This document shows, in pieces, positions 25,366 to 43,280 of a DNA stretch of 64,000 bases (position 1 is its first letter; every line of letters starts with the position of its first letter). Under the pieces are notes generated by a model. The model saw nothing but the letters and a program-made list of their open reading frames with translations, searched no databases and was not told the DNA's origin. The DNA is taken from positions 26,489 to 90,488 of the forward strand of contig JAGLFH010000037.1 in assembly GCA_023144635.1 (NCBI GenBank), given 5' to 3'. Made by a program: the position numbers and the translations under genes. The stretch is from Candidatus Auribacterota bacterium (GTDB taxonomy: Bacteria > Auribacterota > JAFGBW01 > JAFGJP01).

Positions 25366-25499
25366 TACAGACACAAGACTCAAGCAAAACCTCAGAATCC
25401 AAAGACCTAAAACAAAGAAGAAATAACAAAAGGCACAAGACTCAAAAGCGTTGTTCGTCGTTCGTGATTCGGGGTTCGTGAATTGAGCGCTCCGCGATA

Positions 25500-25660
25500 T
25501 AAAATAAAAAGCAGAGAACAGAAAAAAATCGAGGGATGAAGGACGAGGGACAAAAAAACAGAAGATGCACGATACAAGATACACGATAAATAAAAGCAAA
25601 AGACTTTAGACTCAAGGGGAAAAGCACAAGATAGAAAAGAATAATAAAGAATAAATGTCC
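25500..25660. repeat. T-depleted purine-rich low-complexity tract
   Basis: agcagagaacagaaaaaaatcgagggatgaaggacgagggacaaaaaaacagaagatgcacgatacaagatac...; several GGA motifs. Confidence 0.45.
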
Positions 25661-25723
25661 ATGGACCGTGGTCAATAGACCATAGTCAGAAAAAAACAAA
25701 AGAAAAATTAAAAATAAATAAAT

Positions 25724-25767
25724 CACCCCGCAGGAGTAACCAAGTAACACCTACGGGGTGGTTTTTT
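25724..25767 (+). terminator. terminator-like hairpin repeat (CCACCCCGCAGG...CCTACGGGGTGG plus T6)
   Basis: caccccgcagg-agtaaccaagtaaca-cctacggggtgg-tttttt; second copy 47979-48027. Confidence 0.45.
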
Positions 25768-25776
25768 ATACTACGC

Positions 25777-25810
25777 TTTACAGCGGGCGCAGGCTAGCGG
25801 CGCCCCTACT
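25777..25810 (+). repeat. REP-like hairpin unit
   Basis: cagcGGGCGCaggctagcgGCGCCCctactcac. Confidence 0.6.
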
Positions 25811-25872
25811 CACATTCTACTTTTTATGTTTTACAAGGGCGGTTCGCTTATTTTACACCAAATCCTTGCCCT

Positions 25873-25919
25873 CATGAACCACGTGGGGTTCATGACCGTA
25901 AACCCTACGTGGTTTACGG
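25873..25919 (+). repeat. double-hairpin repeat module (CATGAACC...GGTTCATG / CCGTAAACC...GGTTTACGG)
   Basis: Related copies with the same stems and different loops at 33927-33961 and 46408-46431. Confidence 0.5.
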
Positions 25920-25967
25920 CTATCGCAGATCCGCCAGCGCTTTGAGGAGGACTCACTTTTTATTTTG
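25920..25967 (+). repeat. intergenic repeat module (CTATCGCAGATYCGCCAGCRCTTTGRGGAGGACT)
   Basis: Three copies in window (25920, 28432, 41733 inverted), each preceded by a GC hairpin and containing GGAGGACT followed by a T-run. Confidence 0.6.
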
Positions 25968-26169
25968 TTGTTTTTCACTTGAAACCTCGAATCCTTGAAC
26001 TCTTTTTTTCTACTTTCTACAATTACAATTGACAAATAAAATACTGATTGTTAACATAAAAATTCAACTGATTTATTAGTATTTATTTTTACGTAAAAAA
26101 ATTTATAATTTACTGCTGTCAAATAAGTTATTTCAACTTCTAGTAAATTTATTCTCGGAGGGAAACATA

Positions 26170-27186
26170 GTGAGTCTTCAACGCGCATTCATTAAAAATA
26201 TTATTGAAAAAGCAAAAAAAGATCCTAAACATATCGTGTTTCCGGAAGGAGAGGATACGCGTATCCTTGAAGCAGCGCACGTAATTACAAAAGAAAAAAT
26301 TGCAAAGATAACTATTCTTGGCGATGAAGATAAGATATCTAATTTTTATGATGAAAAAGGATATTCGAAAGAAAACATCTCTATAGTTGATCCTACTAAA
26401 TCACATGACATCCCTCATTTTGTAGAACTCTTTTATATTTTAAGAAAACATAAAGGAATTTCTATTGAACAGGCAAAGGAATTTGTAAAACAGAACAATT
26501 ATTTTGGTACTCTTTTAGTATACGATAAAATGGCTGATGCTCTTATATCAGGAGCATCACATTCAACTGCTGATACAGTAAGACCTGCTTTGCAAATAAT
26601 AAAAGCTTCAAGAAAGACATCTATTGTATCCAGCATGTTCTTCATGTGTTTTGATGAAAAAACACTGATATTTGCAGATTGCGGGCTTGTTGAAGATCCT
26701 AATGATAAACAACTTGCTGATATGGCAATACAAAGTGCACTAACCGCTCTTCAATTTGATATTGAACCTGCTGTTGCGCTTCTGTCATATTCCACCAAAG
26801 GATCAGCAGAGAGCCAGATGACAAATAAAATAGTCAGAGCAACAAAAATAGCTCAGGAAAAAATAGCCCAGCTATATCCTGATCTGCCAATAAAGATAGA
26901 CGGCGAGCTTCAGGGAGATGCTGCAATAGTCCCAAGTGTTGCGATCAAAAAATGTCCCGGAAGTATTTTGCAGGGAAATGCAAAGGTTCTTGTATTTCCT
27001 GATCTGAATGCTGGAAACATTGCTTATAAGCTTGTACAAAGATTATGCGGAGCATCTGCTTTTGGTCCAATATTACAGGGGCTTAAAAGACCTGTAAATG
27101 ATCTTTCTAGAGGATGCAGCATAGATGATATTGTCGGAGTAACAGCAATAACGGTAGTTCAATGCCAACAAAAAGAAAATGAATAA
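26170..27186 (+). CDS. pta: phosphate acetyltransferase (Pta; could be a butyryltransferase)
   Basis: 338 aa, GTG start with GGAGG SD; phosphate acyltransferase family; immediately upstream of ackA. Confidence 0.85.
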   Translation: MSLQRAFIKNIIEKAKKDPKHIVFPEGEDTRILEAAHVITKEKIAKITILGDEDKISNFYDEKGYSKENISIVDPTKSHDIPHFVELFYILRKHKGISIEQAKEFVKQNNYFGTLLVYDKMADALISGASHSTADTVRPALQIIKASRKTSIVSSMFFMCFDEKTLIFADCGLVEDPNDKQLADMAIQSALTALQFDIEPAVALLSYSTKGSAESQMTNKIVRATKIAQEKIAQLYPDLPIKIDGELQGDAAIVPSVAIKKCPGSILQGNAKVLVFPDLNAGNIAYKLVQRLCGASAFGPILQGLKRPVNDLSRGCSIDDIVGVTAITVVQCQQKENE

Positions 27187-27205
27187 GAAGGGTTAAAAGT
27201 TAAAC

Positions 27206-28408
27206 ATGAAAATTCTAGTAATCAATTCAGGATCCTCATCTATAAAATATGAATTATTTAACGTTCACACTCATGATGAATATACTGTTCTTGCAAAAGG
27301 AGTAGCAGACAGAATAGGAATAAGCGGAGCATATATACAGCATAAAAAAAATGATGAGGAGGAAGCTATTATTGATATGGATCTTCCAAATCATACAACA
27401 GCAATAGATGCGATTCATAAACTACTTGTCGACCATCAGCATGGCGTTATTGAAAACATCAGCGAAGTAGAAGGTGTCGGGCATAGAGTTGTACACGGAG
27501 GTGAAGATTTTACAGGCTCTGTTCTTGTTGGCAAACAGGTGATAGAAGCTATTAAAAAAAACTCTGAACTTGCCCCCCTTCACAACCCGCCTAACCTCCT
27601 TGGAATAGAAGCAACAAGTAAAACTCTCCCCTCTGTTCCACAGGTAGCAGTTTTTGATACTGCTATTCATCAGACAATGCCGCCAAAAGCATATTTATAC
27701 GGCTTATCTATTGAACAATATAAAAAATATGCTATTAGAAGATACGGGTTTCATGGAACATCGCACGGATATGTTTCAAAAAAAGCAGCAGAAACAGTCG
27801 GTAAATCACTAAAGGAACTAAAAATTATAACATGTCATCTTGGTAACGGTGGATCTATTACAGCATTTTTAGATGGTAAATCAGTTGATACTTCAATGGG
27901 ATTTACTCCTTTAGAAGGAATAATTATGGGAACACGCTGCGGTGATCTTGACCCATTCATACCAATTTATATTATGGAAACACAAGACATGACGCATGAG
28001 GAAGTCAATATCCTTATGAATAAAAAGGGCGGGCTATTAGCATTAACCGGAAAAAGAGATATGAGAGATGTCCTTCAAGAAGCTAAACAAGGCAGCATCG
28101 ATGCAATAAACGGAATAGAGATGTATGTATATAGAATACAAAAATATATAGGTGCCTATGCTGCTGCTATGAATGGGGTAGATGTTATTGTGTTTACTGC
28201 CGGAATAGGAGAAAACAGCTTTTATATCAGAGAAAAAATACTTAAAAACTTTAGTTACCTTGGCCTGATCTTAGATACTGAAGCAAATAATAATAATGAA
28301 ATTATAATATCCACAGAAGATTCCAGCATTTATGCAATGGCCATCAAAACAAATGAAGAACTAGTAATAGCAACAGAGACATTTGATATCATCTCTAAAA
28401 AATCGTGA
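27206..28408 (+). CDS. ackA: acetate kinase
   Basis: 400 aa; MKILVINSGSSSIKYELF N-terminus, VGHRVVHGG, GFHGTSH acetate/propionate kinase signatures. Confidence 0.92.
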   Translation: MKILVINSGSSSIKYELFNVHTHDEYTVLAKGVADRIGISGAYIQHKKNDEEEAIIDMDLPNHTTAIDAIHKLLVDHQHGVIENISEVEGVGHRVVHGGEDFTGSVLVGKQVIEAIKKNSELAPLHNPPNLLGIEATSKTLPSVPQVAVFDTAIHQTMPPKAYLYGLSIEQYKKYAIRRYGFHGTSHGYVSKKAAETVGKSLKELKIITCHLGNGGSITAFLDGKSVDTSMGFTPLEGIIMGTRCGDLDPFIPIYIMETQDMTHEEVNILMNKKGGLLALTGKRDMRDVLQEAKQGSIDAINGIEMYVYRIQKYIGAYAAAMNGVDVIVFTAGIGENSFYIREKILKNFSYLGLILDTEANNNNEIIISTEDSSIYAMAIKTNEELVIATETFDIISKKS

Positions 28409-28431
28409 TTCGTAATTGGCGGATTTATAAT

Positions 28432-28480
28432 TCGCCCCTATCGCAGATTCGCCAGCACTTTGTGGAGGACTAACTTTTTT
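28432..28480 (+). repeat. intergenic repeat module (CTATCGCAGATTCGCCAGCACTTTGTGGAGGACT)
   Basis: cgcccctatcgcagattcgccagcactttgtggaggactaactttttt. Confidence 0.6.
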
Positions 28481-28483
28481 ACC

Positions 28484-28520
28484 GTTTTACAAGGGCGGAT
28501 TTAGAATCCGCCCCTACATA
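28484..28520 (+). repeat. REP-like hairpin unit
   Basis: acaaGGGCGGATTtagAATCCGCCCctacata; identical core at 55528-55548. Confidence 0.75.
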
Positions 28521-28597
28521 CCTTTTATGTTTTTTGCTTTTATTTTTTTCTGTCTTCTGGTTTTTCCAATCTGTGTGGTCTGTGCAACTTTTATTTA

Positions 28598-29269
28598 TTA
28601 TTGTGTTACAGGTGCACCAGCAGGAACTTTAGCCATTCCTTTTGCTATTGCATCTTTTATGAGCTGTCCTATATCTGCCTTATATTCCTTGTTAGGAATA
28701 CCTGCATTATCTGCAAGTGATTTAATCTTTTTTAAAGCTGTTTTAAGCTCTTCATCTGTTACTACTTTTTTGAAATTCTTATTGGTGTTACCACCTGAAG
28801 TTTGAGATGTAACCATTATTGATTCCATTGCAGATTCTAGCTGATTACCATTAATGTTTTCTTTTACCATACCATGCATAGCGCGAGAAAGAGTTATCCG
28901 GGCTGCTGTTTTTTCTTCTGCTGTCAATTTTGATTTCTCTATATAGCCTGCTTCAAAACCACGTACCATAATAGCACCCACAAGAGATTCCTGAGCAAGT
29001 GCTTCCATTATAGCTGCTCCCTGCTGAGCACTTATTTTTCCATCACGTATATCTTGAGTAAAAGAACTTATAGCACTTTTAGCTTTTTTAAATTCTTCTT
29101 CAGGAAGACCCAGTTCCTTTAACATTGCATCTGAAGCTTTTTCTATACCTATAGCTGCCAGTTTAGGAAGATTCTTAAAAGCAAGATATCCGCCTATTCC
29201 ACCTAATAAAACAACCACGACACAACCTATTGCAAATAGCTTCCAGCAACCGCCCTTTTTTTCTGACAT
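28598..29269 (-). CDS. hypothetical membrane-anchored protein
   Basis: ORF track starts at 29368, but that N-terminal extension overlaps repeat hairpins; ATG at 29269 has AAGGAGA SD 6 nt upstream and gives MSEKKGGCWKLFAIGCVVVVLLGG (TM anchor). Confidence 0.55.
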   Translation of the reverse strand: MSEKKGGCWKLFAIGCVVVVLLGGIGGYLAFKNLPKLAAIGIEKASDAMLKELGLPEEEFKKAKSAISSFTQDIRDGKISAQQGAAIMEALAQESLVGAIMVRGFEAGYIEKSKLTAEEKTAARITLSRAMHGMVKENINGNQLESAMESIMVTSQTSGGNTNKNFKKVVTDEELKTALKKIKSLADNAGIPNKEYKADIGQLIKDAIAKGMAKVPAGAPVTQ

Positions 29270-29421
29270 ACTATTTCTCCTTTTTATTATTATGTTTATA
29301 AATACAGTAATCCAGTTACATAAAAAAATCAAAGGATTTCCGAATATTGGATAAAACAAAAGAAGCATGTTTCATAAGTTATTCGCTTATAAAACATGCT
29401 TCTGATAAAATTTAAATTGAA

Positions 29422-30636
29422 TTACATATTTTCGATTATTTTTTCTGCAAATTCTGAACACTTAAGAAGTGTTGCACCTTCTATCTGTCTGTGCAGATCA
29501 TATGTAACTGTTTTTTTGTGGATCGCACCGCTAATACCAACAAATATTAGATGAGCTGCTTCCTTCCATCCCATATATTCAAGCATAAGTTTTGCAGAAA
29601 GTATGAGTGAGCCCGGATTGACTTTATCCTCGCCAGCATATTTCGGAGCTGTTCCGTGTGTAGCTTCAAAAACAGCTATGCCATCTCCTATATTAGCACC
29701 GGGAGCAAGACCAAGTCCTCCTACCTGAGCTGCAAGCGCATCTGACATATAATCACCATTAAGATTAGGCATTGCAAGTACGCTGTACTCCAAAGGACGA
29801 AGCAATATCTGCTGGAACATAGCATCAGCTATTCTGTCCTTTATGAGAATTTTACCCGCAGGCATTTTCCCATCATGCTCTTTCCATAACTCTTCTTCTG
29901 ATATCGTTTTATCACCAAAATTCTCTTTTGCTTCCATGTATCCCCAATCACGGAACGCCCCTTCTGTAAATTTCATAATATTACCTTTATGAACTAAAGT
30001 CACGGAGTCACGGCCATTATCAATTGCATATTGTATTGCTTTATGGACAAGACGTCTTGTTCCTTCAGGAGATATAGGTTTTATTCCAATACCAGATGAA
30101 GTACGTATATTACACCCCATCTCTTTATTTAAAAAGCTTAATACTTTTTCTGCTTCATCACTTTTACTGCTCCATTCAATACCAGCATAAACATCTTCAG
30201 TATTTTCACGAAAAATTATCATATCAACTTTCTCTGGCGCTTTAACAGGACTTGGTACTCCAGGAATATACTGAACAGGACGCACACAAGCATAAAGTTC
30301 CAACTTTTGCCTAATAGCAACATTAAGGCTTCTTATTCCTCCACCAACAGGAGTTGTTAAAGGCCCTTTGATTGCCACACGATATTTTTTTATTTCTTCC
30401 AAAGTCTCATCAGGCAAATAATCACCCATTTTTTCATTGGCCTTTTCACCTGCATAGATCTGTTTCCATTCGATCTCTTTCTTTCCGTTATAGGCTTTCT
30501 TTATAGAAGCATCAATAACAGATCTTGTGGCTCTCCATATATCCGGCCCAATGCCATCACCTTCAATATAAGGTATTACCGGTTTATCAGGCACAACAAG
30601 AGTACCATCGTCTTTTAACTCTATAATAGACATCAA
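29422..30636 (-). CDS. icd: isocitrate dehydrogenase (NADP-dependent)
   Basis: 404 aa; long identical stretches to the canonical prokaryotic Icd as remembered ([56 protein letters not shown]). Confidence 0.95.
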
Positions 30637-30651
30637 TTTCTCCTTCCTTTT

Positions 30652-31818
30652 TTACTTGCTCAACTCTTTAGCAAACTCTTCAATACGATCAAGTCCGCGC
30701 TTTATTGTCTCTTCATCAGATGCATAAGAAAGCCTTATATTTTCATCTACTCCAAATGCTTTACCCGGTACTACTGCAACATTTTTTTCTTTAAGTATTT
30801 TCTCTGCAAATTCAAATGATCCCAGTCCAAGTTCTTTTATATTTGGGAAAACATAAAAAGCTCCTTCAGGAATATTACAGGTTATACCCGGTATGTCTCC
30901 AAGACGGTTTACAATATAATCGCGCCTTTTTTCAAAAGCCTGTCTCATCTTATTTATCTCGTCATCCACCCAAAAAGAATTTTCTAATCCCCGCATTATA
31001 ATAGACACTGGATTTGAAGTACTGTGGCTCTGAAGCTTTGATATACCTTTTACTACCTCAACAGGTCCTGCAATATAGCCTATTCGAAGACCTGTCATTG
31101 AATATGATTTTGAACATCCGTTTACAACGATTGTCTGCTTAAATATATCTTCGTTAAGAGAAGCAATCGATACATGTGTTGCAGGAGAATATATGATCTT
31201 TTCATAGATCTCATCAGATATTACAATAATATTTTTCTTAACGCAAAGTTCAGCGATTTTCTCAAGATCTTCTTTTTTATAAACAGCCCCGGTAGGATTA
31301 CACGGACTATTGATTATAAGAAGCTTTGTGCGGGATGTTATTTTGCAAGATATCTCTTCTGCAGTAAGCCTGAAGCCGTTTTCTTCATGGCACTTTACTG
31401 AAATCGGTTTTCCTCCTGCAAGCTTTACCATCTCAGGATAACTTACCCAGTATGGATCAGGTATAAGTACTTCATCATCCGAATCTATAAGAGTAAGTAT
31501 TATATTAAATATAGAATGCTTAGCTCCACATGATATAACTACATTTTCCGGCAAATAATCAAGCCCGTTATCTTTTTTAAATTTTTCACACACAAGCTCT
31601 TTTAATCTTAATGTTCCGGTTGCCGGAGTATATTTTGTAAAACCTTCATCTAATGCTTTTTTGATACTTTCCTTAACAAGAGAAGGTGTATCAAAATCCG
31701 GCTCCCCTGCACCAAAACTTATTACATCAAGCCCCTCGCTTTTCATTTTTTTTGCTTTGCTTGTTATAGCAAGTGTAGGAGAAGCCTCTATACGCGATAT
31801 TCTTTTTGAAATCTTCAT
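30652..31818 (-). CDS. aspartate / aromatic aminotransferase (class I PLP-dependent)
   Basis: 388 aa; GAGEPDF, NSPCNPTG and PLP-lysine region GCSKSYSMTGLRIGY. Confidence 0.85.
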   Translation of the reverse strand: MKISKRISRIEASPTLAITSKAKKMKSEGLDVISFGAGEPDFDTPSLVKESIKKALDEGFTKYTPATGTLRLKELVCEKFKKDNGLDYLPENVVISCGAKHSIFNIILTLIDSDDEVLIPDPYWVSYPEMVKLAGGKPISVKCHEENGFRLTAEEISCKITSRTKLLIINSPCNPTGAVYKKEDLEKIAELCVKKNIIVISDEIYEKIIYSPATHVSIASLNEDIFKQTIVVNGCSKSYSMTGLRIGYIAGPVEVVKGISKLQSHSTSNPVSIIMRGLENSFWVDDEINKMRQAFEKRRDYIVNRLGDIPGITCNIPEGAFYVFPNIKELGLGSFEFAEKILKEKNVAVVPGKAFGVDENIRLSYASDEETIKRGLDRIEEFAKELSK

Positions 31819-32987
31819 TATAAATACTCCTTTATTACTTTTTTAAAATAATTCTCTTTAATTCCTATTATTTTCATTTCACGCAAAGCATTTTTCGGAG
31901 AATCAGAAGCATGAGCAGTGTTTTCCATAACATTCTGACCAAATTCTTTTCTGACCGTAGAAACTGCAGCTTTTGAAGGATCTGTAGAACCAAGCTGATC
32001 ACGTATTTTTTCAATAGCATTATATCCCTGATAACAAAGAGCAAGACATTTTACTTTACCACGTGCTTTTTTTTCTTTTGCAGATATCGACTTTGTCAGA
32101 TCATATCCTGTCATAAAATTAACGATTTGATTAAAACTCGTTTCAGCATTTAATCCCTTTAACTTCTCTGTGATAGAATCTACTAGTTTTGAAGGAATAT
32201 CAAAAGGGAATGCATCATTCAAAGAATTCTCTACTTTATTTCTTACCATAAATTTCAATTTTTCCCTCAAAACTTCTTTTACAGGCCCGTAAAACTCTTC
32301 TGCCTGAGAAACACTCATCTGAAGGACTTTTGCACCTATTATAAAAAGACCTGTCCTTGAAAAAGAATCTATAATATTACCGGGACGGCCTGAAGGAAAT
32401 CTAAAATTATCGGGCTTTATAAGTACAAGCGTTTTCTGAACCTTTTCCATTTTACGATAGCTTACTACATCTTCAAGAAGACCACCTTCTTTATCACTAT
32501 ACTTTGCAAGTATTTCTAATTGTTTTTTTGTCTCACTAATTGAAACACCGGTTACTACTGCAGGCTCAAAATATTTTATATTTCCATCCACATCCTGAAT
32601 ATAATCACCATAAGTCTCACGTATAGTCTCACCGCCGCTATCTGTTGATACAGCCCCAACAACGTTTTTTAATTTTTCAACTGCCTCGTCACCTTTAAAA
32701 AGAAGACACATCACACGCTTTCTTTCTCCGGTGACTTTATCAGGCGCATAGTTTTCGTACAAGTATTTAACAAATAACTCTCTTACCTTTGCCTTATGTT
32801 TTTTATCTGTTATAACTTCTCTTATTGCCTCAACATATTCATCTATCATTTTTTTTGAAGGAGCAAACATCCTTGCACCTATAAGCTCAAGTTGCGTTCT
32901 TGCAAGAAGCCGGCTTATAATACCACCTGTGCGGGATTTTCTTAGGGAATACGGATTAATGAAAACATATCCTATCTCTTTTGCCAT
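31818..32987 (-). CDS. tandem nucleoside-diphosphate-kinase-like domain protein
   Basis: 389 aa. C-terminal half has NDK motifs (KTLVLIKPDNF...GNIIDSF...EEFYG...NTAHASDS with putative catalytic His); N-terminal half is a degenerate NDK-like repeat (GYVFINPYSL...GGIISRLL) lacking the His motif. Confidence 0.6.
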   Translation of the reverse strand: MAKEIGYVFINPYSLRKSRTGGIISRLLARTQLELIGARMFAPSKKMIDEYVEAIREVITDKKHKAKVRELFVKYLYENYAPDKVTGERKRVMCLLFKGDEAVEKLKNVVGAVSTDSGGETIRETYGDYIQDVDGNIKYFEPAVVTGVSISETKKQLEILAKYSDKEGGLLEDVVSYRKMEKVQKTLVLIKPDNFRFPSGRPGNIIDSFSRTGLFIIGAKVLQMSVSQAEEFYGPVKEVLREKLKFMVRNKVENSLNDAFPFDIPSKLVDSITEKLKGLNAETSFNQIVNFMTGYDLTKSISAKEKKARGKVKCLALCYQGYNAIEKIRDQLGSTDPSKAAVSTVRKEFGQNVMENTAHASDSPKNALREMKIIGIKENYFKKVIKEYL

Positions 32988-33277
32988 ATAAATACCTCTC
33001 TTTTACTTTTAATTAACCCGTCTACGACGGGGACTTTTTTTAGCCACTAAGGGACACTAAGAATTACTAAGAGGCAGCAAAGCTGCCTTTTTTTGATACA
33101 CACTTCCTCTTTTTTTCCCTTCGTGCCTTCTTCGTGAACTTCGCGGTTAATTCACTTTTTTTAAAAAAGGAAATTCTTATATGTTTTAATTATAAAAAAC
33201 TTTGCTTTTTAAAAGTTTGAATAGTATATATTATTATCATCATTTTTAAAAATATTTTTTTAATTTGGAGTACTATA

Positions 33278-33715
33278 ATGAAGATTGTTGCCCAGCGTGT
33301 TAAAAAAGCTTCTGTGTTTGTTGATGGAAAAGAAATCGCTAGCATGAATAAAGGTACTCTCATATATTTTGCTGCTGCTAAAGAAGATAATAAAAAAAAT
33401 GCTGACTGGCTTGCAGATAAAATCTTAAGCCTCAGGATATTTGAAGATGAATTTGGGAAAATGAACAGGTCTTTAATCGATGTAAAGGGAAGCTTAATGG
33501 TAGTTCCACAATTTACTCTTTACGGAAATTGCAGAAAAGGCAAAAGACCGGGTTTTGATGAAAGTGCCTCTCCTGAAACAGCTAATGAACTATTCAAATA
33601 CTTCGTAAATAAGCTAAAAGAATCTTCTATTCCGGTATATACAGGTAAATTCCGATCCCACATGGAAGTTACAAGCATAAATGACGGCCCTGTTACTTTT
33701 ATAATCGAAAAATAA
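33278..33715 (+). CDS. dtd: D-aminoacyl-tRNA deacylase
   Basis: 145 aa; MKIVAQRVKKASV N-terminus and C-terminal NDGPVT (SQFTL / GPVT motifs); GGAG SD. Confidence 0.9.
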   Translation: MKIVAQRVKKASVFVDGKEIASMNKGTLIYFAAAKEDNKKNADWLADKILSLRIFEDEFGKMNRSLIDVKGSLMVVPQFTLYGNCRKGKRPGFDESASPETANELFKYFVNKLKESSIPVYTGKFRSHMEVTSINDGPVTFIIEK

Positions 33716-33990
33716 GACTCAATAAAACGTGGTGCGTGATGCGTTGTGAGTTATGCGTTCAAGGAGCACTGCGTAATAAAAAACGTCATTCGTCGTTCGG
33801 GATTCGTGGTTCGTTCAAGGAGCGCTTCCGCCTTCGTTAAAACTATGGCGAGACAGGAAAGCGAGATAAAAAAACATTAAAAGCGTGATTCGGGGTTCGT
33901 AGTTCGTAAATGGAGAGAACACAGAGTCATGAACCACGTCCTAAACCACATAGGGTTCAGGATAAACAGAAAAAGTAAAAGGTAAAATGT

Positions 33991-34025
33991 GAGTAGGGTT
34001 CTGGCCTGCCTGAACCGTGTAAAAG
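33991..34025 (-). repeat. REP-like hairpin unit (inverted orientation)
   Basis: Plus strand gaGTAGGGTTCtggcctgcctGAACCgtgtaaaag; identical core at 43158-43187. Confidence 0.6.
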
Positions 34026-34231
34026 ATAAAATGTGAAAGTAAGAAAGGGTTACAGCGTTCAAGGTTATTCGATGGAGTTTATTCTGAGCGGAGTCTAAGA
34101 TCCATTCACGAAGAACACGAAAGACAAATTACGAATACCCCTATTTTCTCCCCCTCTGTCCTCTGCTTTCCGGGCTTTTTCTTCAGTCTTGAGTCTGGTG
34201 TCTTGAGTCTTGAGTCTTACATAAAAATCCC

Positions 34232-34260
34232 TTGTTTATTATATATAAAATGTATATAAT
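34232..34260 (+). promoter_or_regulatory. candidate sigma70-type promoter upstream of purQ
   Basis: TTGTTT (34232-34237), 17-nt spacer, TATAAT (34255-34260), about 38 nt before the purQ ATG. Confidence 0.35.
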
Positions 34261-34297
34261 GCCATTCCCTGAAACCTGAAAAATAAAGGAATCTAAT

Positions 34298-34993
34298 ATG
34301 AAGTTCGGAGTTGTTGTTTTTCCCGGTTCTAATTGTAATGAAGACTGTTACTGGGCTCTTAAAAATGATATTGGCGTTGATGTCAGATATATATGGCACA
34401 AATCAACTGAAATCGATGATCTGGACGCAATCGTCCTTCCGGGCGGATTCAGTTACGGAGATTATTTAAGAGTAGGGTCCATTGCGCGATTTTCACCTGT
34501 TATGAATTCAGTTATCGACTTTGCTAAAAAGGGAAAACTTGTGATCGGGATATGTAATGGCTTTCAAATCCTTTTGGAAGCAGGACTGCTTCCCGGAGCT
34601 ATGCTTAAGAACAAACATTTAAGTTTTATATGCAAATACGTATCTCTAAAAGTAGAGAATTCATCTACACCTTTTACTATAGAAACTAAAGATCATAATA
34701 CATTAAACATTCCTATCGCTCACGGAGAAGGAAATTATTATATAGATAATAACGGACTTGATGAGTTAAAAAAGAATAACCAAATAGTATTTAAGTATTC
34801 TAATAAAGATGGAAAAACTGATGATAATACAAATCCCAATGGTTCAGTTGAAAATATAGCCGGTATCTGCAACAAAGAGAAAAATGTTCTCGGAATGATG
34901 CCGCATCCTGAAAGGTGCTGCAACGCTAATTTAGGTTCCGTGGACGGACAATCTATATTTTTATCCATGAAAAATTTTATTAAGCAGAATTAG
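34298..34993 (+). CDS. purQ: phosphoribosylformylglycinamidine synthase subunit PurQ (glutaminase)
   Basis: 231 aa; [26 protein letters not shown], catalytic GICNGFQ and HPER triad. Confidence 0.92.
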
Positions 34994-35002
34994 GAGCTAT
35001 TT

Positions 35003-37240
35003 ATGTATAAAGATCAACCCGTAACTGACAAACTTGTAGAAGAACACGGTATTTCTCCTGAAGAACATGTAAATATAAAAAAGATGCTCGGAAATAGAGA
35101 AATGAATTTTACCGAGCTTGGACTTTTTTCGGTAATGTGGTCAGAACACTGTAGTTATAAGAACAGCAAACCTCTTTTAAAAACATTACCAAACACCGGA
35201 GATAACATACTTGTCGGAGCCGGAGAAGAAAATGCCGGTGTTATAGATATTGGCGACGGCTGGGCAATATCCTTTAAAATAGAATCTCACAACCACCCTT
35301 CTGCTATTGAACCTTTTCAGGGAGCAGCTACAGGTGTAGGCGGTATAATACGTGATATTTTTACTATGGGAGCAAAACCGATCGCTGTAATGGATTCATT
35401 AAGATTCGGTGATCCATCAAAGCCACGTACAAAATGGTTAGCAAATGGAGTAGTTGCAGGTATTGCTCATTATGGAAACTGCATTGGACTTCCCACAATA
35501 GCAGGGGAGACTTTTTTCGATTCGTCCTATGAAACAAATCCTCTTGTTAACGCCTTTTGCCTTGGAATATTAAGACATGAACATCTTGCAAAAGGAGCGG
35601 CTACAGGTGTAGGTAATCCTGTGTTTTATGTAGGAGCGGCTACAGGACGTGATGGAATTCATGGAGCAACGTTTGCATCAGAAGACCTTGATGATTCTTC
35701 TGAAGAAAGACGCTCTGCTGTTCAAGTAGGAGATCCTTTTATGGAAAAGCTTCTTATGGAAGCATGCCTTGAACTCTTAAAGACCGGTGCTGTTGTTGGT
35801 ATTCAGGATATGGGTGCAGCAGGCCTTGCATGTTCCTGTTCTGAGACGGCAAGTAGAGGTAACGCAGGAACTGATGTAGACCTTTCCCTCGTGCCACAGC
35901 GTGAAGAAGGAATGATACCTTACGAGATCCTGTGTTCAGAATCACAGGAACGTATGCTTGTTATCGTCAAAAAAGGAAGAGAAAAAGAAGTTAATGATAT
36001 ATTTGAAAAATGGGATCTTCATGCTGTTCAAATAGGAACAGTTATTGACGGAGAAAAAATGATCGTCCGCAACAACGGTGAAATCGTTGCTGATGTAAAA
36101 GCAAAAGACCTTACGGACAATGTTCCTGAATATACAAGAAAAGTTATTGAGGCAGATTATTTCAGCAAACTCAAAGAGCAAAATGATAAAGATATTGAAA
36201 AAGCACTTGCTAAAAATAATTTAGATCATAATAATTCTCTATCAAAACTTCTCTCATCACCAAATATTGCAAGTAAACATGAAATATACGAGCAGTATGA
36301 TCATATGGTAAAAACAAATTCTACTGTTCTTCCGGGTTCTGATGCTGCAGTACTTTTAGTAAAAGAAGCAGACAAGATCCTTGCCATGACTACTGATTGT
36401 AATGGACGTTACTGCTACGGAGATCCATTTACAGGAGCAAAAATAGCTGTTAGCGAAGCAGCAAGAAATCTTACATGCAGCGGAGCAACACCAATTGCCG
36501 TTACTAACTGCCTTAATTTTGGTAATCCATATAATAGTGATGTTTACTGGCAGTTCAATCTGGCCATAAAAGGCATGAGTGAGGCCTGCATTAAATTTGA
36601 CACACCTGTAACAGGAGGAAATGTCAGCTTCTATAACCAAAATCCTGATGGTGCTGTCTTCCCCACTCCTGTAATAGGAATGGTGGGATTAATAGAAAAA
36701 AAAGAACACATAACTTCTCAATTTTTTAAGGAAGCAGGTGATATGATAGTACTCCTTGGGCCTGTAGGAGAAGAATTAGGTGCCTCTGAATACATGAACG
36801 TAATAGAAGGTGTCTCAATTGGAACACCCCCAGCATGCGACCTTGAAATGGAATACAATATTCAGAGCTTTTGTAGAGAATCTATTAAAAGCGGATTTGT
36901 TAGTTCTGCTCATGACATTTCAGAAGGCGGACTTGCGGTATCTTTAGCAGAATGCTGTTTTTCTTCCCTTGGACATCTTGGAGCTGCAATAGAACTTCCA
37001 TATGAAATAGTAAATAATACAAGTGCTCTTTTTGGAGAGACACAATCACGTATAATACTTTCCATTAAAAAAGATAAAATTAAAGATTTCATGAATTTTA
37101 GTGCAAATTATCGCGTTCCATTCTGTGAAATCGGCAAAGTTACTGAAGAAAAAGATCTTATTATTTCAGCTAAAGGAAAAAAATTAATAGAAAGATCTAT
37201 TAATGATCTTTTTGATTCCTGGATGATAGGAGTGCTTTAA
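35003..37240 (+). CDS. purL: phosphoribosylformylglycinamidine synthase subunit PurL
   Basis: 745 aa; FSVMWSEHCSYK, ESHNHPS, two AIR-synthase-related domains. Confidence 0.95.
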   Translation: MYKDQPVTDKLVEEHGISPEEHVNIKKMLGNREMNFTELGLFSVMWSEHCSYKNSKPLLKTLPNTGDNILVGAGEENAGVIDIGDGWAISFKIESHNHPSAIEPFQGAATGVGGIIRDIFTMGAKPIAVMDSLRFGDPSKPRTKWLANGVVAGIAHYGNCIGLPTIAGETFFDSSYETNPLVNAFCLGILRHEHLAKGAATGVGNPVFYVGAATGRDGIHGATFASEDLDDSSEERRSAVQVGDPFMEKLLMEACLELLKTGAVVGIQDMGAAGLACSCSETASRGNAGTDVDLSLVPQREEGMIPYEILCSESQERMLVIVKKGREKEVNDIFEKWDLHAVQIGTVIDGEKMIVRNNGEIVADVKAKDLTDNVPEYTRKVIEADYFSKLKEQNDKDIEKALAKNNLDHNNSLSKLLSSPNIASKHEIYEQYDHMVKTNSTVLPGSDAAVLLVKEADKILAMTTDCNGRYCYGDPFTGAKIAVSEAARNLTCSGATPIAVTNCLNFGNPYNSDVYWQFNLAIKGMSEACIKFDTPVTGGNVSFYNQNPDGAVFPTPVIGMVGLIEKKEHITSQFFKEAGDMIVLLGPVGEELGASEYMNVIEGVSIGTPPACDLEMEYNIQSFCRESIKSGFVSSAHDISEGGLAVSLAECCFSSLGHLGAAIELPYEIVNNTSALFGETQSRIILSIKKDKIKDFMNFSANYRVPFCEIGKVTEEKDLIISAKGKKLIERSINDLFDSWMIGVL

Positions 37241-37381
37241 AAAAGTGTTGAGTGTTAAGTTTTGAGTGATGAGTTGAAGGAGCACTTCGTGCGAAGATAG
37301 ATACAAGATACAGGATAAAAACAAGAACAGAAGACAGAGGACAGAAAGAATAGAATTACATTTAACAAATTATTGAGGTTG

Positions 37382-37424
37382 CTTTCACGTGACCACGTTG
37401 ACACGTGGAACGTGACTCACGTAG
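37382..37424 (+). repeat. CACGTG-rich 41-nt repeat module (copy 2)
   Basis: Identical to 5623-5663; lies between purL and purF. Confidence 0.7.
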
Positions 37425-37547
37425 CACCCTACTGCTTAGCTTTGCAAGCAAAACTAAGCAAAAATCAGAGTTCGCAATAACGAAATTTTACTTTTATATT
37501 TAACTAACAACTAACTTGAAAAACAATTTCTACTAAAAGCTAAAATT

Positions 37548-38975
37548 ATGAAAAATTACACCGACAGACCAAAAGATGAATGCGGTATCTTCGGCATCTA
37601 TGGAAAAGAAGATGCAAGTGAACTTACTTACCTAGGTCTTTTTGCCCTTCAGCACAGGGGACAGGAAAGTGCCGGAATAATTTCAGGAAGCAAAGACGAA
37701 TTAAAAATATATAAGAACATGGGGCTTGTCGGTAAGATCTTTAAAAAGAGATTTCTTGACAGCCTTACAGGCAATTATGCTCTGGGGCACGTAAGATATT
37801 CTACAACAGGTTCATCAATGCAGAAAAATGCTCAACCTCTTCTTATTAGTTATGCAGGAGGAGAACTTGGAATATCACATAACGGAAATCTTGTAAATGC
37901 AGGAAAATTAAGAAATGAGCTTGAAGCAGAAGGCTCTATCTTTCAAACAACAGTCGACAGTGAAATTATTCTTCACTTGATCGCAAGAGATAAAGCAAAA
38001 GACTTTAAAGATAAATTAAAAAATGCACTTTCACAAATACAAGGAGCTTATTCTTTAGGGCTTATAAGAAAAGGACTCCTTATTGGTGTTCGTGATCCAA
38101 ACGGATTCAGACCTCTTTGTATTGGAAAACTCGGATATTCACACATACTTTCTTCTGAAACATGTGCGCTTGATCTTATAGGTGCTGAATTTATAAGAGA
38201 TGTTGAACCCGGAGAAATAGTGTATATCTCAGATAACGGTATTATCTCTGACAGGATACCCGGGGAAAAACAAAAAAAATCATTCTGTATCTTTGAACAT
38301 ATTTACTTTGCCCGTCCTGACAGCATAATCGATGGCAAAAGCGTACACGTTATGAGAAAAAATATGGGGAGACAACTTGCAAAAGAACATCCGGTAGAAG
38401 CAGATATGGTCATACCTGTTCCTGACTCTGGAAACTCTGCGGCCCTTGGTTATGCAGAAGAATCAGGAATTCCGTTTGAGATGGGCATAATAAGAAATCA
38501 TTATATAGGAAGAACCTTTATTCAACCTTCACAAAATGTAAGAGATTTTGCCGTTAAAATAAAACTGAATCCTGTTAAAAATATTATTAAAGGTAAACGC
38601 ATTGTTGTTATTGATGATTCTATTGTTAGAGGCACTACAAGCAGAAGCCGTGTAAGGAGCCTAAGGGAAGCAGGAGCAAAAGAAATACATATGCGAATTT
38701 CCTGTCCGCCACACCGTCATAGATGTGTATACGGAATTGATTTCCCGTCTGAAAGTGAGCTTCTGGCTGCAAATAATGACATGCAAGCTATAAAAGGATT
38801 TCTTAATGTTGATTCTATAGATTATTTAAGTCAACCGGGCCTTTTAAAAGCATTAGAAGGTGATCAAGATGAGTTTTGCTGTGCCTGTTTTGACGGAAAC
38901 TATCCTGTAAAATTTGATAAAAGTACAACAAAATTCATTCATGAAAAAGGAACATTGATCACTGAGATCCAGTAG
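37548..38975 (+). CDS. purF: amidophosphoribosyltransferase
   Basis: 475 aa; N-terminal CGIFGIYG nucleophile, PRTase loop VVIDDSIVRGTT, C-terminal Cys cluster. Confidence 0.95.
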   Translation: MKNYTDRPKDECGIFGIYGKEDASELTYLGLFALQHRGQESAGIISGSKDELKIYKNMGLVGKIFKKRFLDSLTGNYALGHVRYSTTGSSMQKNAQPLLISYAGGELGISHNGNLVNAGKLRNELEAEGSIFQTTVDSEIILHLIARDKAKDFKDKLKNALSQIQGAYSLGLIRKGLLIGVRDPNGFRPLCIGKLGYSHILSSETCALDLIGAEFIRDVEPGEIVYISDNGIISDRIPGEKQKKSFCIFEHIYFARPDSIIDGKSVHVMRKNMGRQLAKEHPVEADMVIPVPDSGNSAALGYAEESGIPFEMGIIRNHYIGRTFIQPSQNVRDFAVKIKLNPVKNIIKGKRIVVIDDSIVRGTTSRSRVRSLREAGAKEIHMRISCPPHRHRCVYGIDFPSESELLAANNDMQAIKGFLNVDSIDYLSQPGLLKALEGDQDEFCCACFDGNYPVKFDKSTTKFIHEKGTLITEIQ

Positions 38976-39040
38976 ACGCAAATATGTTAGACGCGAATTG
39001 AAAAACTAATTAACGCAAATAAAAAATAGATGGTGGTAAT

Positions 39041-40090
39041 ATGAACCAAGAAAATGAAAAGAAAAATATTTCTTACTCTGATACAGGGGTTGATATCTCG
39101 ATGGGTAAAAAATTTGTAGAAAGCATTAAAAACCATGCAAAAAAAACTTTCAATAATAATGTATTAACAAATATTGGACAGTTTGGAGGACTTTTTGATA
39201 TATCCTCACTTCCCTTTAAGGAACCTGTACTTGTTTCCAGCACTGATGGGGTCGGAACAAAAATAAAAGTCGCTGTTGCTGCAAACTTACATAAAAATAT
39301 CGGCATCGATATTGTATCTCATTGTGTAAACGACATTATGGTGCAAGGTGCACACCCGCTTTTTTTTCTTGATTATATTGGCTGTGGAAAATTATCTCAC
39401 CAGATCATGCTTCAATTAGTAGAAGGAATGAAGGATGCCTGCATTGAGTCAGGATGCGCTCTTATTGGCGGAGAGACTGCAGAAATGCCCGATGTTTATA
39501 AAGAAGGCGAATATGATCTTGTGGGAACTATTGTAGGGATCGTTGACAAAAAAAACATCATAGACGGAAGCAAAATAACTTGCGATAACGTTTTAATAGG
39601 ACTGCCTTCAAATGGTCTTCATACTAACGGATACACTCTTGCCCGTAAAATAATATTTGATATTAAAAAATTTGCCCCAAATACAAAAATAGATGAACTT
39701 GAAAATACAATAGCAATTGAGCTTTTAAAGCCTCATCGTTCATACTGCAAGGTATTAAAAGAACTTTTTGATAAAACTCAAATAAATGGTATCGCCCATA
39801 TAACCGGAGGCGGAGTTATAGAAAACATTCCTAGAATACTTCCATTAAATTGCAGTGCTGAAATAAATAAAGACACAATGCCTGTACCCCAAATATTTGA
39901 TCTTATGAAAACTTGGGGACCCGTAGATGAATCTGAGATGTACAGAGTCTTTAATATGGGTATAGGTCTTGTAATTGTTGCTGAAAAAAATGACTCGGAA
40001 GCAATACTTAAAATAGCAAAAGAATTTTACCCCGAAGCATCTGTAATTGGAAAGATAATAACTGGTAACCAAAAAACTGTTTTAAACTAG
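39041..40090 (+). CDS. purM: phosphoribosylformylglycinamidine cyclo-ligase (AIR synthase)
   Basis: 349 aa; YSDTGVDI, DGVGTK, IGLPSNGLHTNGY motifs. Confidence 0.95.
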   Translation: MNQENEKKNISYSDTGVDISMGKKFVESIKNHAKKTFNNNVLTNIGQFGGLFDISSLPFKEPVLVSSTDGVGTKIKVAVAANLHKNIGIDIVSHCVNDIMVQGAHPLFFLDYIGCGKLSHQIMLQLVEGMKDACIESGCALIGGETAEMPDVYKEGEYDLVGTIVGIVDKKNIIDGSKITCDNVLIGLPSNGLHTNGYTLARKIIFDIKKFAPNTKIDELENTIAIELLKPHRSYCKVLKELFDKTQINGIAHITGGGVIENIPRILPLNCSAEINKDTMPVPQIFDLMKTWGPVDESEMYRVFNMGIGLVIVAEKNDSEAILKIAKEFYPEASVIGKIITGNQKTVLN

Positions 40091-40116
40091 AGAATATTTA
40101 ACCAAAGAGGAAGTTC

Positions 40117-41691
40117 ATGGCAGAGATCAAAAGAGCACTTGTCAGTGTATCTGACAAAACAGGAGTTGTTGATTTTACACGTTTTCTAACAGAAAAAGGC
40201 ATAGAACTTATTTCTACCGGAGGAACATATAAATTGCTTAAATCCGAAGGCCTTAAAGTCACGGAAATAAGCGAGTATACAGGTTTTCCAGAAATGATGG
40301 ACGGCAGAGTAAAAACGCTTCATCCTAAAGTACATGGCGGATTACTTGCATTAAGGAATAACGATAAACACCTTACCCAGATGAAAGACAATAATATTCT
40401 TCCTATTGATATGGTAGTAGTCAACCTGTATCCTTTTAAAAAGGTTTCAAAAGACACAAGTAAATCTTTTATGGAAGTTATTGAAAACATAGATATCGGC
40501 GGACCTTCTATGCTTAGAAGCGGTGCAAAGAATTTTGAAAGTGTTGTTCTGGTATCTTCCCCATCCCAATATGAAAATATACAAAATGAAATGGAAACTA
40601 ATGGGGATGTATCCCTTGATACACGTAAAAAACTGGCACGAGATGTTTTTAGGCTGACTTCATCATATGATGCTGCTATCAATTCTTTTCTCTCCCGAGA
40701 TATGGAAGATGAAAGTATGCCGGATGAAATAGTTCTTTCAGGAGACAAGATCCAAGACCTCCGCTACGGTGAAAATCCACACCAAAAAGCAGCATATTAT
40801 TCTGACGGATCAAAATGGACCAGTGAACAACCAATAACGAATGCTAAACAGCTTCATGGAAAAGAACTTTCTTTTAATAACATAATAGATTTTGACGGAG
40901 CTCTTGACCTAGTTAAGGAATTCTCCAAACCTGCTGTTGTTGTTGTCAAACATACAAACCCTTGCGGATGTGCTGAAGGTGAGGAAGAGTTATCAGAAGT
41001 ATTTAAAAAAGCCTGGGCAACAGACCCTACATCAGCTTTTGGAAGCGTTATAGCAATAAACACTACAGTAGATGAAAAAACTTCCCAAGAAATATCTAAC
41101 TATTTTGTAGAAGGTGTAATTGCACCTGCTTTCCACGAAAAAGCAATTGAAATACTTACAAAGAAAAAAAACTTACGTCTTCTTACGCTTCCCGGACTTG
41201 ATGAGTGGTGCAAAAACAAAAAGAAGCGCGCTGCTTCAATAGATGTTAAAAAAGTAAGCGGCGGAATACTTGTGCAGGAAAGAAATATTTCTATAGGAGA
41301 TGCAGAAAATTATGAAGTTGCTACAAAAAGAGCTCCTACAGATGAAGAGAAGGAAGCACTTGAATTTGGATGGAAGGTTGTAAAACACGTAAAATCAAAT
41401 GCAATCGTATATGTAAAAAAAGGTGAAACTGTAGGTATTGGCGCAGGACAGATGAGCCGTGTTGATTCTTCAAAAATCGCAATAATGAAAGCACAAAAAG
41501 AAGTTAAAGGTTCTGTTCTTGCATCTGATGCTTTTTTTCCATTTAGAGACGGAGTAGATGCTGCAGCAGAAGCTGGAGTAACTGCAATAATACAACCCGG
41601 TGGATCAATAAGAGATGAAGAAGTAATAAAGGCTTGCGATGAACATAACATAGCTATGGTCTTTACAAAAATGCGTCACTTTAGACACTAG
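40117..41691 (+). CDS. purH: bifunctional AICAR transformylase / IMP cyclohydrolase
   Basis: 524 aa; ALVSVSDKTG MGS-like N-terminus, KTLHPKVHGG, C-terminal SDAFFPFRD. Confidence 0.95.
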   Translation: MAEIKRALVSVSDKTGVVDFTRFLTEKGIELISTGGTYKLLKSEGLKVTEISEYTGFPEMMDGRVKTLHPKVHGGLLALRNNDKHLTQMKDNNILPIDMVVVNLYPFKKVSKDTSKSFMEVIENIDIGGPSMLRSGAKNFESVVLVSSPSQYENIQNEMETNGDVSLDTRKKLARDVFRLTSSYDAAINSFLSRDMEDESMPDEIVLSGDKIQDLRYGENPHQKAAYYSDGSKWTSEQPITNAKQLHGKELSFNNIIDFDGALDLVKEFSKPAVVVVKHTNPCGCAEGEEELSEVFKKAWATDPTSAFGSVIAINTTVDEKTSQEISNYFVEGVIAPAFHEKAIEILTKKKNLRLLTLPGLDEWCKNKKKRAASIDVKKVSGGILVQERNISIGDAENYEVATKRAPTDEEKEALEFGWKVVKHVKSNAIVYVKKGETVGIGAGQMSRVDSSKIAIMKAQKEVKGSVLASDAFFPFRDGVDAAAEAGVTAIIQPGGSIRDEEVIKACDEHNIAMVFTKMRHFRH

Positions 41692-41732
41692 AAGAAGCAG
41701 AAGCTATTTAGACACGAAGAAAAAAAGATATA

Positions 41733-41795
41733 AAAGGTAGTCCTCCACAAAGCGCTGGCGGATCTGCGATAGGGGCGATTCATGAATCGCCCAAT
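41733..41795 (-). repeat. intergenic repeat module (same family, inverted) with perfect 20-nt palindrome gggcgattcatgaatcgccc
   Basis: Plus strand aaaaggtagtcctccacaaagcgctggcggatctgcgataggggcgattcatgaatcgccc; lies between purH and purD. Confidence 0.6.
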
Positions 41796-43084: not shown

Positions 43085-43154
43085 GATAAAAAAAGCAAGA
43101 AAGTCGTGAGTCAAAAGTCCATAGTCAATGGTTAGAGGATAAAAGGTAAAATAT

Positions 43155-43190
43155 ATGTAGGGTTCTGGCCTGCCTGAACCGTGTAAGATA
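43155..43190 (-). repeat. REP-like hairpin unit (inverted orientation)
   Basis: atGTAGGGTTCtggcctgcctGAACCgtgtaag. Confidence 0.6.
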
Positions 43191-43200
43191 GTGAAAAAGT

Positions 43201-43235: not shown

Positions 43236-43280
43236 ATAGCTGCCTGAACCGTTGTTAAACTGTAAAAATAAATTTATCTA

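Follow-up and report, generated by a model that had tools for sequence, protein, structure and literature searches.

A short repeated segment divides the CTAC tag of REP-like hairpins in intergenic DNA of a Candidatus Auribacterota bacterium

Introduction

What is the short sequence module that recurs three times in intergenic DNA of a Candidatus Auribacterota bacterium, each time beside a hairpin and once in inverted orientation between the genes purH and purD? The question is raised by a 64,000-nt stretch of contig JAGLFH010000037.1 (assembly GCA_023144635.1; hereafter the window, 34% G+C), in which a preliminary description had noted the module and likened it to bacterial interspersed mosaic elements (BIMEs), which are built of repetitive extragenic palindromes (REPs). 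To our knowledge, the spread of REP-like and smaller dispersed repeats is still poorly understood, and direct biochemistry is essentially confined to the Escherichia coli protein TnpA-REP. In all three copies we find a conserved segment splitting the CTAC tag that follows the hairpin, and we put at roughly an even chance the reading that the module is a nested insert of very small size, or else a mosaic module, in a lineage-specific family of GTAG-tagged REP-like repeats. The evidence for this architecture is good; that for mobility and mechanism is circumstantial, resting on three copies. What is new is the conserved 29-32-nt module splitting a GTAG tag, while the world of REP, BIME and small dispersed repeat (SDR) elements is already known.

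Three copies of the module and their conserved core

The degenerate 34-mer CTATCGCAGATYCGCCAGCRCTTTGNGGAGGACT matched the window at three places, all with 0 mismatches, and nowhere else at up to 3 mismatches; a match was contained in 0/100 dinucleotide-preserving shuffles (expected by chance, 0.00). The pattern search placed the copies as follows.

25920-25953, plus strand: 34-mer, copy 1
28438-28471, plus strand: 34-mer, copy 2
41739-41772, minus strand: 34-mer, copy 3, in the purH-purD gap and antisense to the operon

These exact matches bear out the three copies of the preliminary description, the third of them inverted, at coordinates that were correct though slightly wider than the conserved core. 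Similarity between copies reaches about 42-46 nt (CCCTATCGCAG...GGAGGACTMMCTTTTWT), and in the aligned copies conservation runs from CTA to about 10 nt beyond GGAGGACT. A core of 29 nt shows 26-28/29 identities between copies (read from alignments A1 and A3). The adjoining hairpins of copies 2 and 3 are about 77% identical, these two copies aligning over 74 nt at 85%, and the hairpin of copy 1 is unrelated and unalignable.

The DNA readable from this lineage came to about 95 kb in total, of which about 14 kb beyond the window was added by contigs fetched through window proteins; this added flanking DNA held 0 further copies. The matching sister contig of the window is DAOVST010000013.1 (NCBI assembly GCA_030633405.1), whose acetate kinase is labelled at NCBI as belonging to a Candidatus Aureabacteria metagenome-assembled genome (MAG), and the matching MAG comes from a South China Sea cold seep, Site-F (PMC9357000). 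Sister contigs from several or more samples were 99.98-100% identical to the window and carried the module in every case; these contigs are clonal, and the sites compared across samples are all filled. One k-mer-based Logan contig (L003) begins exactly at the module boundary, 41739, which is a weak hint of further copies.

Exact-pattern scans of collections without the source genome returned 1 match in genome_contigs and 5 in metagenome_contigs, all of which were rejected as copies, since they fall within high-GC coding sequence encoding IRQ(R/H)FxEE. The module had 0 matches in viral_contigs and none in plasmids and phages. Exact module segments of 24-27 nt in such sequence lie in unrelated genes for a TmcAL-like nucleotidyltransferase and an IS630-like transposase (L004 3141-3167, L007 9153-9179, L008 1146-1172 and L009 281-304); given the database size we judged them chance matches, though the IS630 match is 24/24.

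The H1 family of hairpin repeats

The intergenic DNA of the source MAG is a dense mosaic of short GC-rich repeat modules, as assessed by repeat finding and by listing all gaps of at least 100 nt in the window. The most abundant repeat family of the window, here called H1, comprises 15 cleanly aligned copies (A2), or 16 by covariance model (CM) R1, which recovers the 15 and one weaker copy and has no match in coding sequence.

5772-5820, 6023-6072, 13982-14030, 25777-25826 and 28485-28534, plus strand: H1, first set
33976-34024, 43140-43188 and 43186-43235, minus strand: H1, minus-strand set
46276-46325, 46361-46409, 48082-48130, 48156-48206, 55365-55413, 55475-55525 and 55520-55569, plus strand: H1, remaining set

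Each element is laid out as TTTTACAC, GG-stem-loop-stem-CC, CTAC, NNAC and TTTTAY, the stems measuring 7-9 bp and the loops 3-8 nt, and all copies are intergenic. The CTAC, which reads GTAG on the other strand, is unpaired and invariant in 15/15 copies, as are the GG and the CC. Pairing is kept in 94% of cells across the 7 outer stem pairs, and 5/7 of these pairs carry changes on both sides, that is compensatory ones, a covariation reached in 0/500 shuffles and not approached by slid controls; the stems include at least nine distinct sequences with pairing kept. H1 occupies co-directional or convergent gaps only (0 in divergent gaps), and its clusters are all head-to-tail (5800/6052, 43160/43206, 46305/46389, 48110/48186 and 55393/55505/55549). 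Its density is about 1 per 4 kb in the window, with none in the 14 kb of flanking DNA. The end of contig L021 falls exactly on the point from which the H1 elements at 28485 and 55520 share the same sequence.

GTAG-tagged REPs are short palindromes (20-40 bp) that lie outside genes, downstream of them, carry a terminal unpaired GTAG and fall into sub-families with complementary stem changes (PMC3733652). The tag is shared by more than 90% of members, and a cognate gene for a REP-associated tyrosine (Y1) transposase (RAYT), as a rule with REPs on its flanks, goes with them. H1 resembles these elements and fits the published definition. The inverted pair that makes up the BIME or REPIN unit was not found, all H1 clusters being head-to-tail, an arrangement reported to be rare among REPs (PMC3733652). 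The comparison with BIMEs in the preliminary description is apt: a genuine dispersed repeat tied to GC hairpins, with a GTAG/CTAC tag (PMC3733652), is present; inverted REP pairs are not.

The module splits the CTAC tag

A GC hairpin had been described beside each copy of the module, and stable folds are indeed predicted there, the energies of the adjoining hairpins lying between -8.8 and -15.2 kcal/mol and their z-scores between -3 and -4.5. The perfect 20-nt palindrome noted at the inverted copy is likewise present (GGGCGATTCATGAATCGCCC, 41773-41792). The parts of each copy, and the intact H1 elements nearest to them, are listed below.

25777..25826, plus strand: intact H1 sharing the gap and the orientation of copy 1, which lies about 100 nt downstream; CM R1 48 bits
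25896..25922, plus strand: copy 1 host hairpin, of the class hairpin+CTAT, CCGTAAACC-ctacgt-GGTTTACGG (25896-25919), then CTA, the left half of the split tag; -13.0 kcal/mol, z = -3.8
25923..25951, plus strand: copy 1 core, 29 nt, TCGCAGATCCGCCAGCGCTTTGAGGAGGA; best deletion and 29-column MAFFT gap (A3)
25952..25965, plus strand: copy 1 displaced tail, CTCACTTTTTATTT, the right half of an H1-type tail
28418..28440, plus strand: copy 2 host hairpin, GGCGGATT-tat-AATTCGCC (28418-28436), then C and CTA; -8.8 kcal/mol
28441..28469, plus strand: copy 2 core, 29 nt, TCGCAGATTCGCCAGCACTTTGTGGAGGA; MAFFT gap
28470..28484, plus strand: copy 2 displaced tail, CTAACTTTTTTACCG
28485..28534, plus strand: intact H1 3' of copy 2, in tandem; CM R1 56.4 bits, E = 1e-8; hairpin 28493-28513, -15.2 kcal/mol
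41770..41792, minus strand: copy 3 host hairpin, the palindrome (41773-41792) and CTA (41772-41770); -12.8 kcal/mol
41741..41769, minus strand: copy 3 core, 29 nt, TCGCAGATCCGCCAGCGCTTTGTGGAGGA; MAFFT gap
41726..41740, minus strand: copy 3 displaced tail, CTACCTTTTATATCT

After the hairpin the module copies read CTA-T, not CTA-C, the tag being split as CTA-T...GGA-C in all three, and the sequences following GGAGGA (CTCACTTTTTAT, CTAACTTTTTTAC and CTACCTTTTAT) resemble the H1 tail. To score this, a position weight matrix was made from the tails of the 15 H1 copies, and in each module copy every deletion length between 15 and 44 nt was tried at 7 offsets. The best deletion was the same 29 nt in 3/3 copies, at CT^AC or equivalently CTA^C, and left restored tails of 13.7, 18.2 and 16.8 bits in copies 1, 2 and 3; genuine H1 tails scored 8-23.8 bits in a leave-one-out test, and at least 12 bits was reached at only 15 positions on both strands of the whole window. 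An unguided MAFFT alignment of the three copies with six empty H1 elements set CT apart from AC by one clean gap of 29 columns. Because the same 29-nt deletion restores an H1 tail in every copy, the T-run belongs to the host repeat, of which it is the displaced tail, and is not part of the module. The Shine-Dalgarno (SD)-like box and T-run had been presented as one unit; they come apart, the T-run being an H1 tail displaced by the 29-nt insert and the GGAGG starting no open reading frame (ORF).

The restored junctions can be placed within the H1 family. That of copy 1, GGCTAC TCAC TTTTTAT, compares with the H1 tails CCCTAC TCAC ATTTTAC at 46389 and 33996. In copy 2 the host stem GGCGGATTtatAATTCGCC is 2 positions off the H1 subfamily GGGCGGATTtagAATCCGCCC, intact at 28493 and 55528, and the restored tail CCCCTACTAACTTTTTTAC (CCCCTAC TAAC TTTTTTAC) almost matches the H1 at 48110, CCCCTAC TAAC TTTTTAC. 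The restored CCCCTAC TACC TTTTAT of copy 3 agrees with the H1 tail consensus, and its hairpin through CTA gives a weak local match to CM R1 at model positions 9-31. The three module tails match three different H1 tail variants: TCAC, TAAC and TACC.

These data bear on a rival account, in which hairpin, 34-nt segment and tail arose once (by insertion or otherwise, or with H1 tails formed by deletion) and were copied whole, the 29-mer never having moved alone. The similar hairpins of copies 2 and 3 over their 74-nt alignment, the single orientation relative to hairpin and tail in 3/3 copies, and the small number of copies known, three, all suit such a composite. It fits poorly with the wholly different host hairpin of copy 1, with tails matching three H1 variants, and with a core clearly more conserved than its flanks (A1, A3). 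The better conservation of the core than of the hairpins, together with the three tail variants, favours independent arrival over composite copying, though three copies cannot prove such arrival; we regard the composite as possible but on the unlikely side.

Two models describe the junctions. One takes 29 nt at CT^AC or CTA^C and gives the best tail restoration; the other takes a 32-nt unit, TATCGC...GGAC, which is also the alternative for copy 1, where the core boundary is ambiguous by 1 nt. CTA stands on both sides of the insert in copies 2 and 3, and CTA and CTC in copy 1. E. coli TnpA-REP binds the REP hairpin and GTAG on single-stranded DNA, the GTAG being required; it cleaves inverted REPs (iREPs) between CC and TAC in the CTAC, cuts linkers between C and T, and can rejoin strands (PMC3333891). 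The 32-nt unit, with a C|T step at both of its boundaries, is the best fit to this cleavage rule. A miniature inverted-repeat transposable element was considered and rejected: terminal inverted repeats are lacking (the ends read TCGCAG... and ...GGAGGA), and deletions of the target-site-duplication type (31-32 nt) lie outside the best restorations.

Coding, RNA and transcription signals

The module is neither a gene, a known RNA, a ribosome-binding site nor a terminator. No frame has a conserved start and stop, and no start codon follows the GGAGG, which rules out a coding element; a composite peptide query of six-frame module translations, aimed at spurious ORFs called over further copies, returned nothing at E <= 10. 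Rfam 15 gave no match at the gathering threshold in the whole window, and at E up to 5 nothing over the modules except a 19-bit chance match to osmY in the copy-3 hairpin. On its own, the 38-nt module is no more stably folded than its shuffled versions, whichever strand is taken (z >= -0.15), and the predicted folds differ from copy to copy; a structured RNA was rejected on these grounds. None of the copies is called as a terminator in a consensus scan: an intrinsic terminator has its U-tract within 0-2 nt of a GC-rich stem, and here the T-run begins at least 8 nt from any stem (at least 8 nt from that of H1, and some 37 nt or more from that of the module's host hairpin); the same scan finds canonical terminators elsewhere, for example at 25748-25770. 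A consensus promoter scan calls nothing at the module.

The opposite strand could in principle specify a putative small antisense RNA, in which a single-stranded CCUCC (anti-SD-like) stretch followed by a hairpin would mask ribosome-binding sites. The reverse strand of every copy does read AGTCCTCC...GCGATAG and then a hairpin, with an A-rich, -10-like run just upstream. Yet the promoter scan reports nothing there, no -35 is conserved, no U-tract follows the hairpin in copies 1 and 3, and Rfam has no match, so that this proposal is hardly credible.

A second proposal of this kind makes the 29-34-nt segment a putative site for a nucleoid or architectural protein between hairpins, by analogy with the L motif of E. 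coli BIME-1, which binds integration host factor (IHF). Strong sequence conservation without structure or coding potential would suit such a site, and copy 2 is flanked by two hairpins in the manner of a BIME linker. Against this, the segment has no internal symmetry and no match, by inspection, to an IHF-type consensus, and its three sites share no common position relative to promoters; we think a protein-binding linker very unlikely.

Gene context and the purH-purD copy

Pfam domains bear out the placement of copy 3 between purH and purD given in the preliminary description. The genes around the copies are as follows.

26170-27186: pta (Pfam), between copies 1 and 2
27206-28408: ackA (Pfam), between copies 1 and 2; the copy 2 host hairpin begins 10 nt past its stop codon (28406-28408)
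40117-41691: purH, MGS and AICARFT_IMPCHas domains (Pfam)
41819-43084: purD, GARS_N/A/C domains (Pfam)

The purH-purD gap had been singled out as an unusual place for a structured element, but repeat modules also occur elsewhere along this co-directional string, between dtd and purQ, purL and purF, and purD and purE, and the placement is not special. In co-directional gaps H1 lies antisense to transcription in 5/6 gaps (10/11 elements), a trend that is suggestive only and, counted by independent gaps (5/6), not significant. The sole sense gap, 25366-26169, is also that of module copy 1; a canonical terminator lies upstream in it, and it therefore separates transcription units. Copy 3 follows the antisense rule, and here the mRNA would gain a hairpin of -12.8 kcal/mol followed by AAUAAAAAAAAU, not by a U-tract; in the absence of a U-tract, read-through at the purH-purD copy is predicted. 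The element may be tolerated in this gap through an orientation that keeps its T-rich tail off the mRNA sense strand, and a REP-like effect of copy 3 on the stability of the upstream mRNA is, at most, possible.

Hairpin and module together might act in cis as RNA, as a 3' stabiliser, processing site or attenuator of the kind that REPs and BIMEs can be in E. coli, separating or balancing expression of purH and purD. The adjacent hairpins are stable, copy 2 sits 10-30 nt past the ackA stop codon, and the antisense orientation of H1 suggests selection against a sense T-rich tail in operons. On the other side, orientation and position relative to genes vary over the three copies, no U-tract stands beside the stem at any of them, the module is unstructured and has neither covariation support nor an Rfam family, the orientation trend falls short of significance by independent gaps, and the element is missing in relatives keeping the same genes. 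A cis-acting RNA thus appears quite unlikely.

Comparison with relatives

The lineage is thinly sampled for comparison. In relatives whose AckA is 76-79% identical (L024 from GCA_027033325.1, and L026), plain AT-rich DNA follows ackA, with no hairpin, H1 or module there. In another relative (L010 from GCA_030673305.1; PurD 75% identical) the purD-purE gap is 11 nt, against 322 nt of repeats here, and GAAAATC-type heptamer repeats lie upstream of purD in place of the module. About 30 kb of DNA drawn from four further Aureabacteria-like assemblies held no match to the H1 model. The nearest relatives, at 75-79% protein identity, thus lack the whole repeat mosaic, not merely the insert. Because relatives that keep the same genes have no hairpin, H1 or module, the mosaic, module included, is by this comparison a recent lineage-specific gain and not a conserved regulatory feature of these operons.

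Discussion

Several observations weigh against the nested-insert reading. The host hairpin of copy 1 is not a canonical H1, and copies 2 and 3 are without the TTTTACAC 5' flank, their CM R1 scores being weak or nil. The similarity of the restored tails could equally reflect one ancestral composite copied whole. Neither junction model is free of difficulty: the 29-nt junctions (T^A/G^A or A^T/A^C) differ from the E. coli cut between C and T, and the 32-nt model bounded by C and T restores a shorter, less typical tail. Only 3 copies are known in the accessible lineage DNA, and a profile search with nhmmer found no degenerate copies in any of the DNA fetched (about 95 kb). The contigs, at 99.98-100% identity, show no filled-versus-empty polymorphism. 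Finally, no Y1 transposase or RAYT is present among the Pfam-annotated genes of about 78 kb (window and flanks).

Under the nested-insert reading, a hairpin-CT-AC-NNAC-TTTT repeat would have become hairpin-CT, 29 nt, AC-NNAC-TTTT, always in the same orientation, the unit being non-coding repeated DNA of 29 nt, or 32 nt counting the repeated CTA. Such a unit would probably have spread by a cut-and-ligate reaction on single-stranded DNA. The catalyst would be an unseen HUH/Y1 (RAYT-like) enzyme of the kind proposed to move REPs, recognising hairpin and tag, and excision and re-ligation of the segment at the tag would account for a fixed site, a fixed orientation and the lack of a clear target duplication. 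A bolder version has the 29-32-nt segment as an independently mobile micro-element, among the smallest known, with neither structure nor ends belonging to it. It would integrate specifically into the GTAG/CTAC tag of REP-like hairpins, riding on, and perhaps disabling, the site that a RAYT-type single-stranded DNA transposase recognises in a candidate phylum (Aureabacteria); we consider this version unlikely. If true, it would describe a parasite of a parasite, one that exposes the cut site of a RAYT-type enzyme. A conserved insert always splitting the GTAG tag at the same bond would mark the point of cleavage and ligation in vivo in an uncultured phylum, and would be a second example, outside the cyanobacteria, of nested mobile sequences under 35 nt.

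Set beside GTAG-tagged REPs (Di Nocera et al. 2013, PMC3733652; Ton-Hoang et al. 2012, PMC3333891), H1 shares the short, GC-rich extragenic palindromes in many copies, the invariant unpaired CTAC/GTAG tag and the stem sub-families with compensatory changes, and the module lies within the tag, where E. coli TnpA-REP cuts iREPs. In contrast to the inverted dimers (head-to-head or tail-to-tail; BIME/REPIN) that dominate elsewhere, H1 arrays are head-to-tail; H1 is also bordered by additional conserved sequence, TTTTACAC and NNAC-TTTTAY; it has no accompanying RAYT gene among the Pfam-annotated genes; and a tag divided by a conserved 29-nt segment is not known to have been described. The BIMEs of E. 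coli likewise combine hairpins with short, conserved motifs that are not palindromic, in a modular mosaic occupying intergenic and intra-operon gaps, with possible effects on mRNA stability, but their linker lies between inverted REPs, whereas the module here follows a single hairpin, interrupts its tag and has no sequence similarity to BIMEs.

A parallel in size comes from the cyanobacterium Nostoc punctiforme, in which Elhai and colleagues (2008, Genome Res 18:1484; cited in PMC3116915) reportedly described SDR4-6, elements of 21-27 nt said to occupy one set position within a conserved context that forms a hairpin, and recognised by comparing filled with empty hosts. They share with the module a very small insert at a fixed position in a hairpin context, empty hosts (here six H1 elements) and a genome background rich in heptamer-periodic repeats; they differ in phylum and sequence, and the module is 29-32 nt long with 3 copies known. 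REPs are also insertion hot spots (Tobes & Pareja 2006, PMC1525189). Insertion sequences (IS) that target REPs (PMC1525189) and the IS200/IS605-derived PATEs resemble the module in site-specific entry into REPs, and junctions free of target-site duplications are compatible with HUH/Y1 chemistry; those elements, however, run from 100 nt to more than 1 kb and have their own ends, hairpins or transposase, and the insert here is without hairpin, terminal inverted repeats or ORF.

For annotation, the GC-rich gap motifs of this lineage, those of the pur operon included, are mostly repeat modules, and labelling such motifs as regulatory sites, ribosome-binding sites or terminators needs transcript data.

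Other repeats and features of the window

A second hairpin family, H2 (TAGATYCC..GGRATGAC-ATAC-GTTTT), with an H1-like tail, occurs at 5735-5770, 13845-13880, 43278-43312 and 55408-55462. Relative to the copy at 5735, the one at 55408 has an extra, hairpin-forming loop insert of about 24 nt, another nested insertion (A5).

A heptamer-unit family of 3-5 units (for example GTTCGTC GTTCGTG ATTCGGG) ends in the SD-like box TTCAAGGAGCRCT, and its copies lie mostly 11-112 nt past a stop codon, in the same direction as the gene.

5587-5618, 13728-13780, 25444-25491, 33736-33770, 33792-33826, 37252-37286, 46510-46572 (minus strand) and 50628-50680: heptamer-unit family

The 3' end of the module, TTTGWGGAGGACT, agrees with this box at 10/13 positions; a kinship of the module to the box family is noted, not established. 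Heptamer-periodic, strand-asymmetric tracts (GTCTTGA x5, GATACAA/CAGAAGA runs) are found at 25500-25660, 34175-34228, 37295-37350 and 50495-50625, and at 1-160 of contig L010; the intergenic autocorrelation peaks at lag 7 (0.336 vs about 0.31), and the tracts, including the L010 GAAAATC arrays right upstream of purD, recall the cyanobacterial STRR repeats.

A canonical-looking terminator hairpin, CACCCCGCAGGAGTAAMCAARTWACACCTACGGGGTGG, followed by Ts, stands at 25722-25765 and at 47984-48024, the two copies being almost the same across about 38 nt (A4); it seems that even some terminators in this DNA belong to repeat families. The 47-nt repeat TTTCACGTGACCACGTTGACACGTGGAACGTGACTCACGT, rich in CACGTG palindromes, is 96% identical between 5619-5665 and 37379-37425, one copy lying in the purL-purF gap. 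At 2342-3645, 1.3 kb without a convincing ORF carries internal direct repeats of about 70 nt (D7, D9) at spacings of 185 and 454 nt, with one 58-aa ORF called in the sister contigs. A small ORF with a good SD sequence at 11596-11700 (plus strand), also a gene call in the sister contigs, encodes an extremely acidic 34-aa peptide, MRVIEDDFEDDLGDDFEDNETDDDAEDDDNYDYD.

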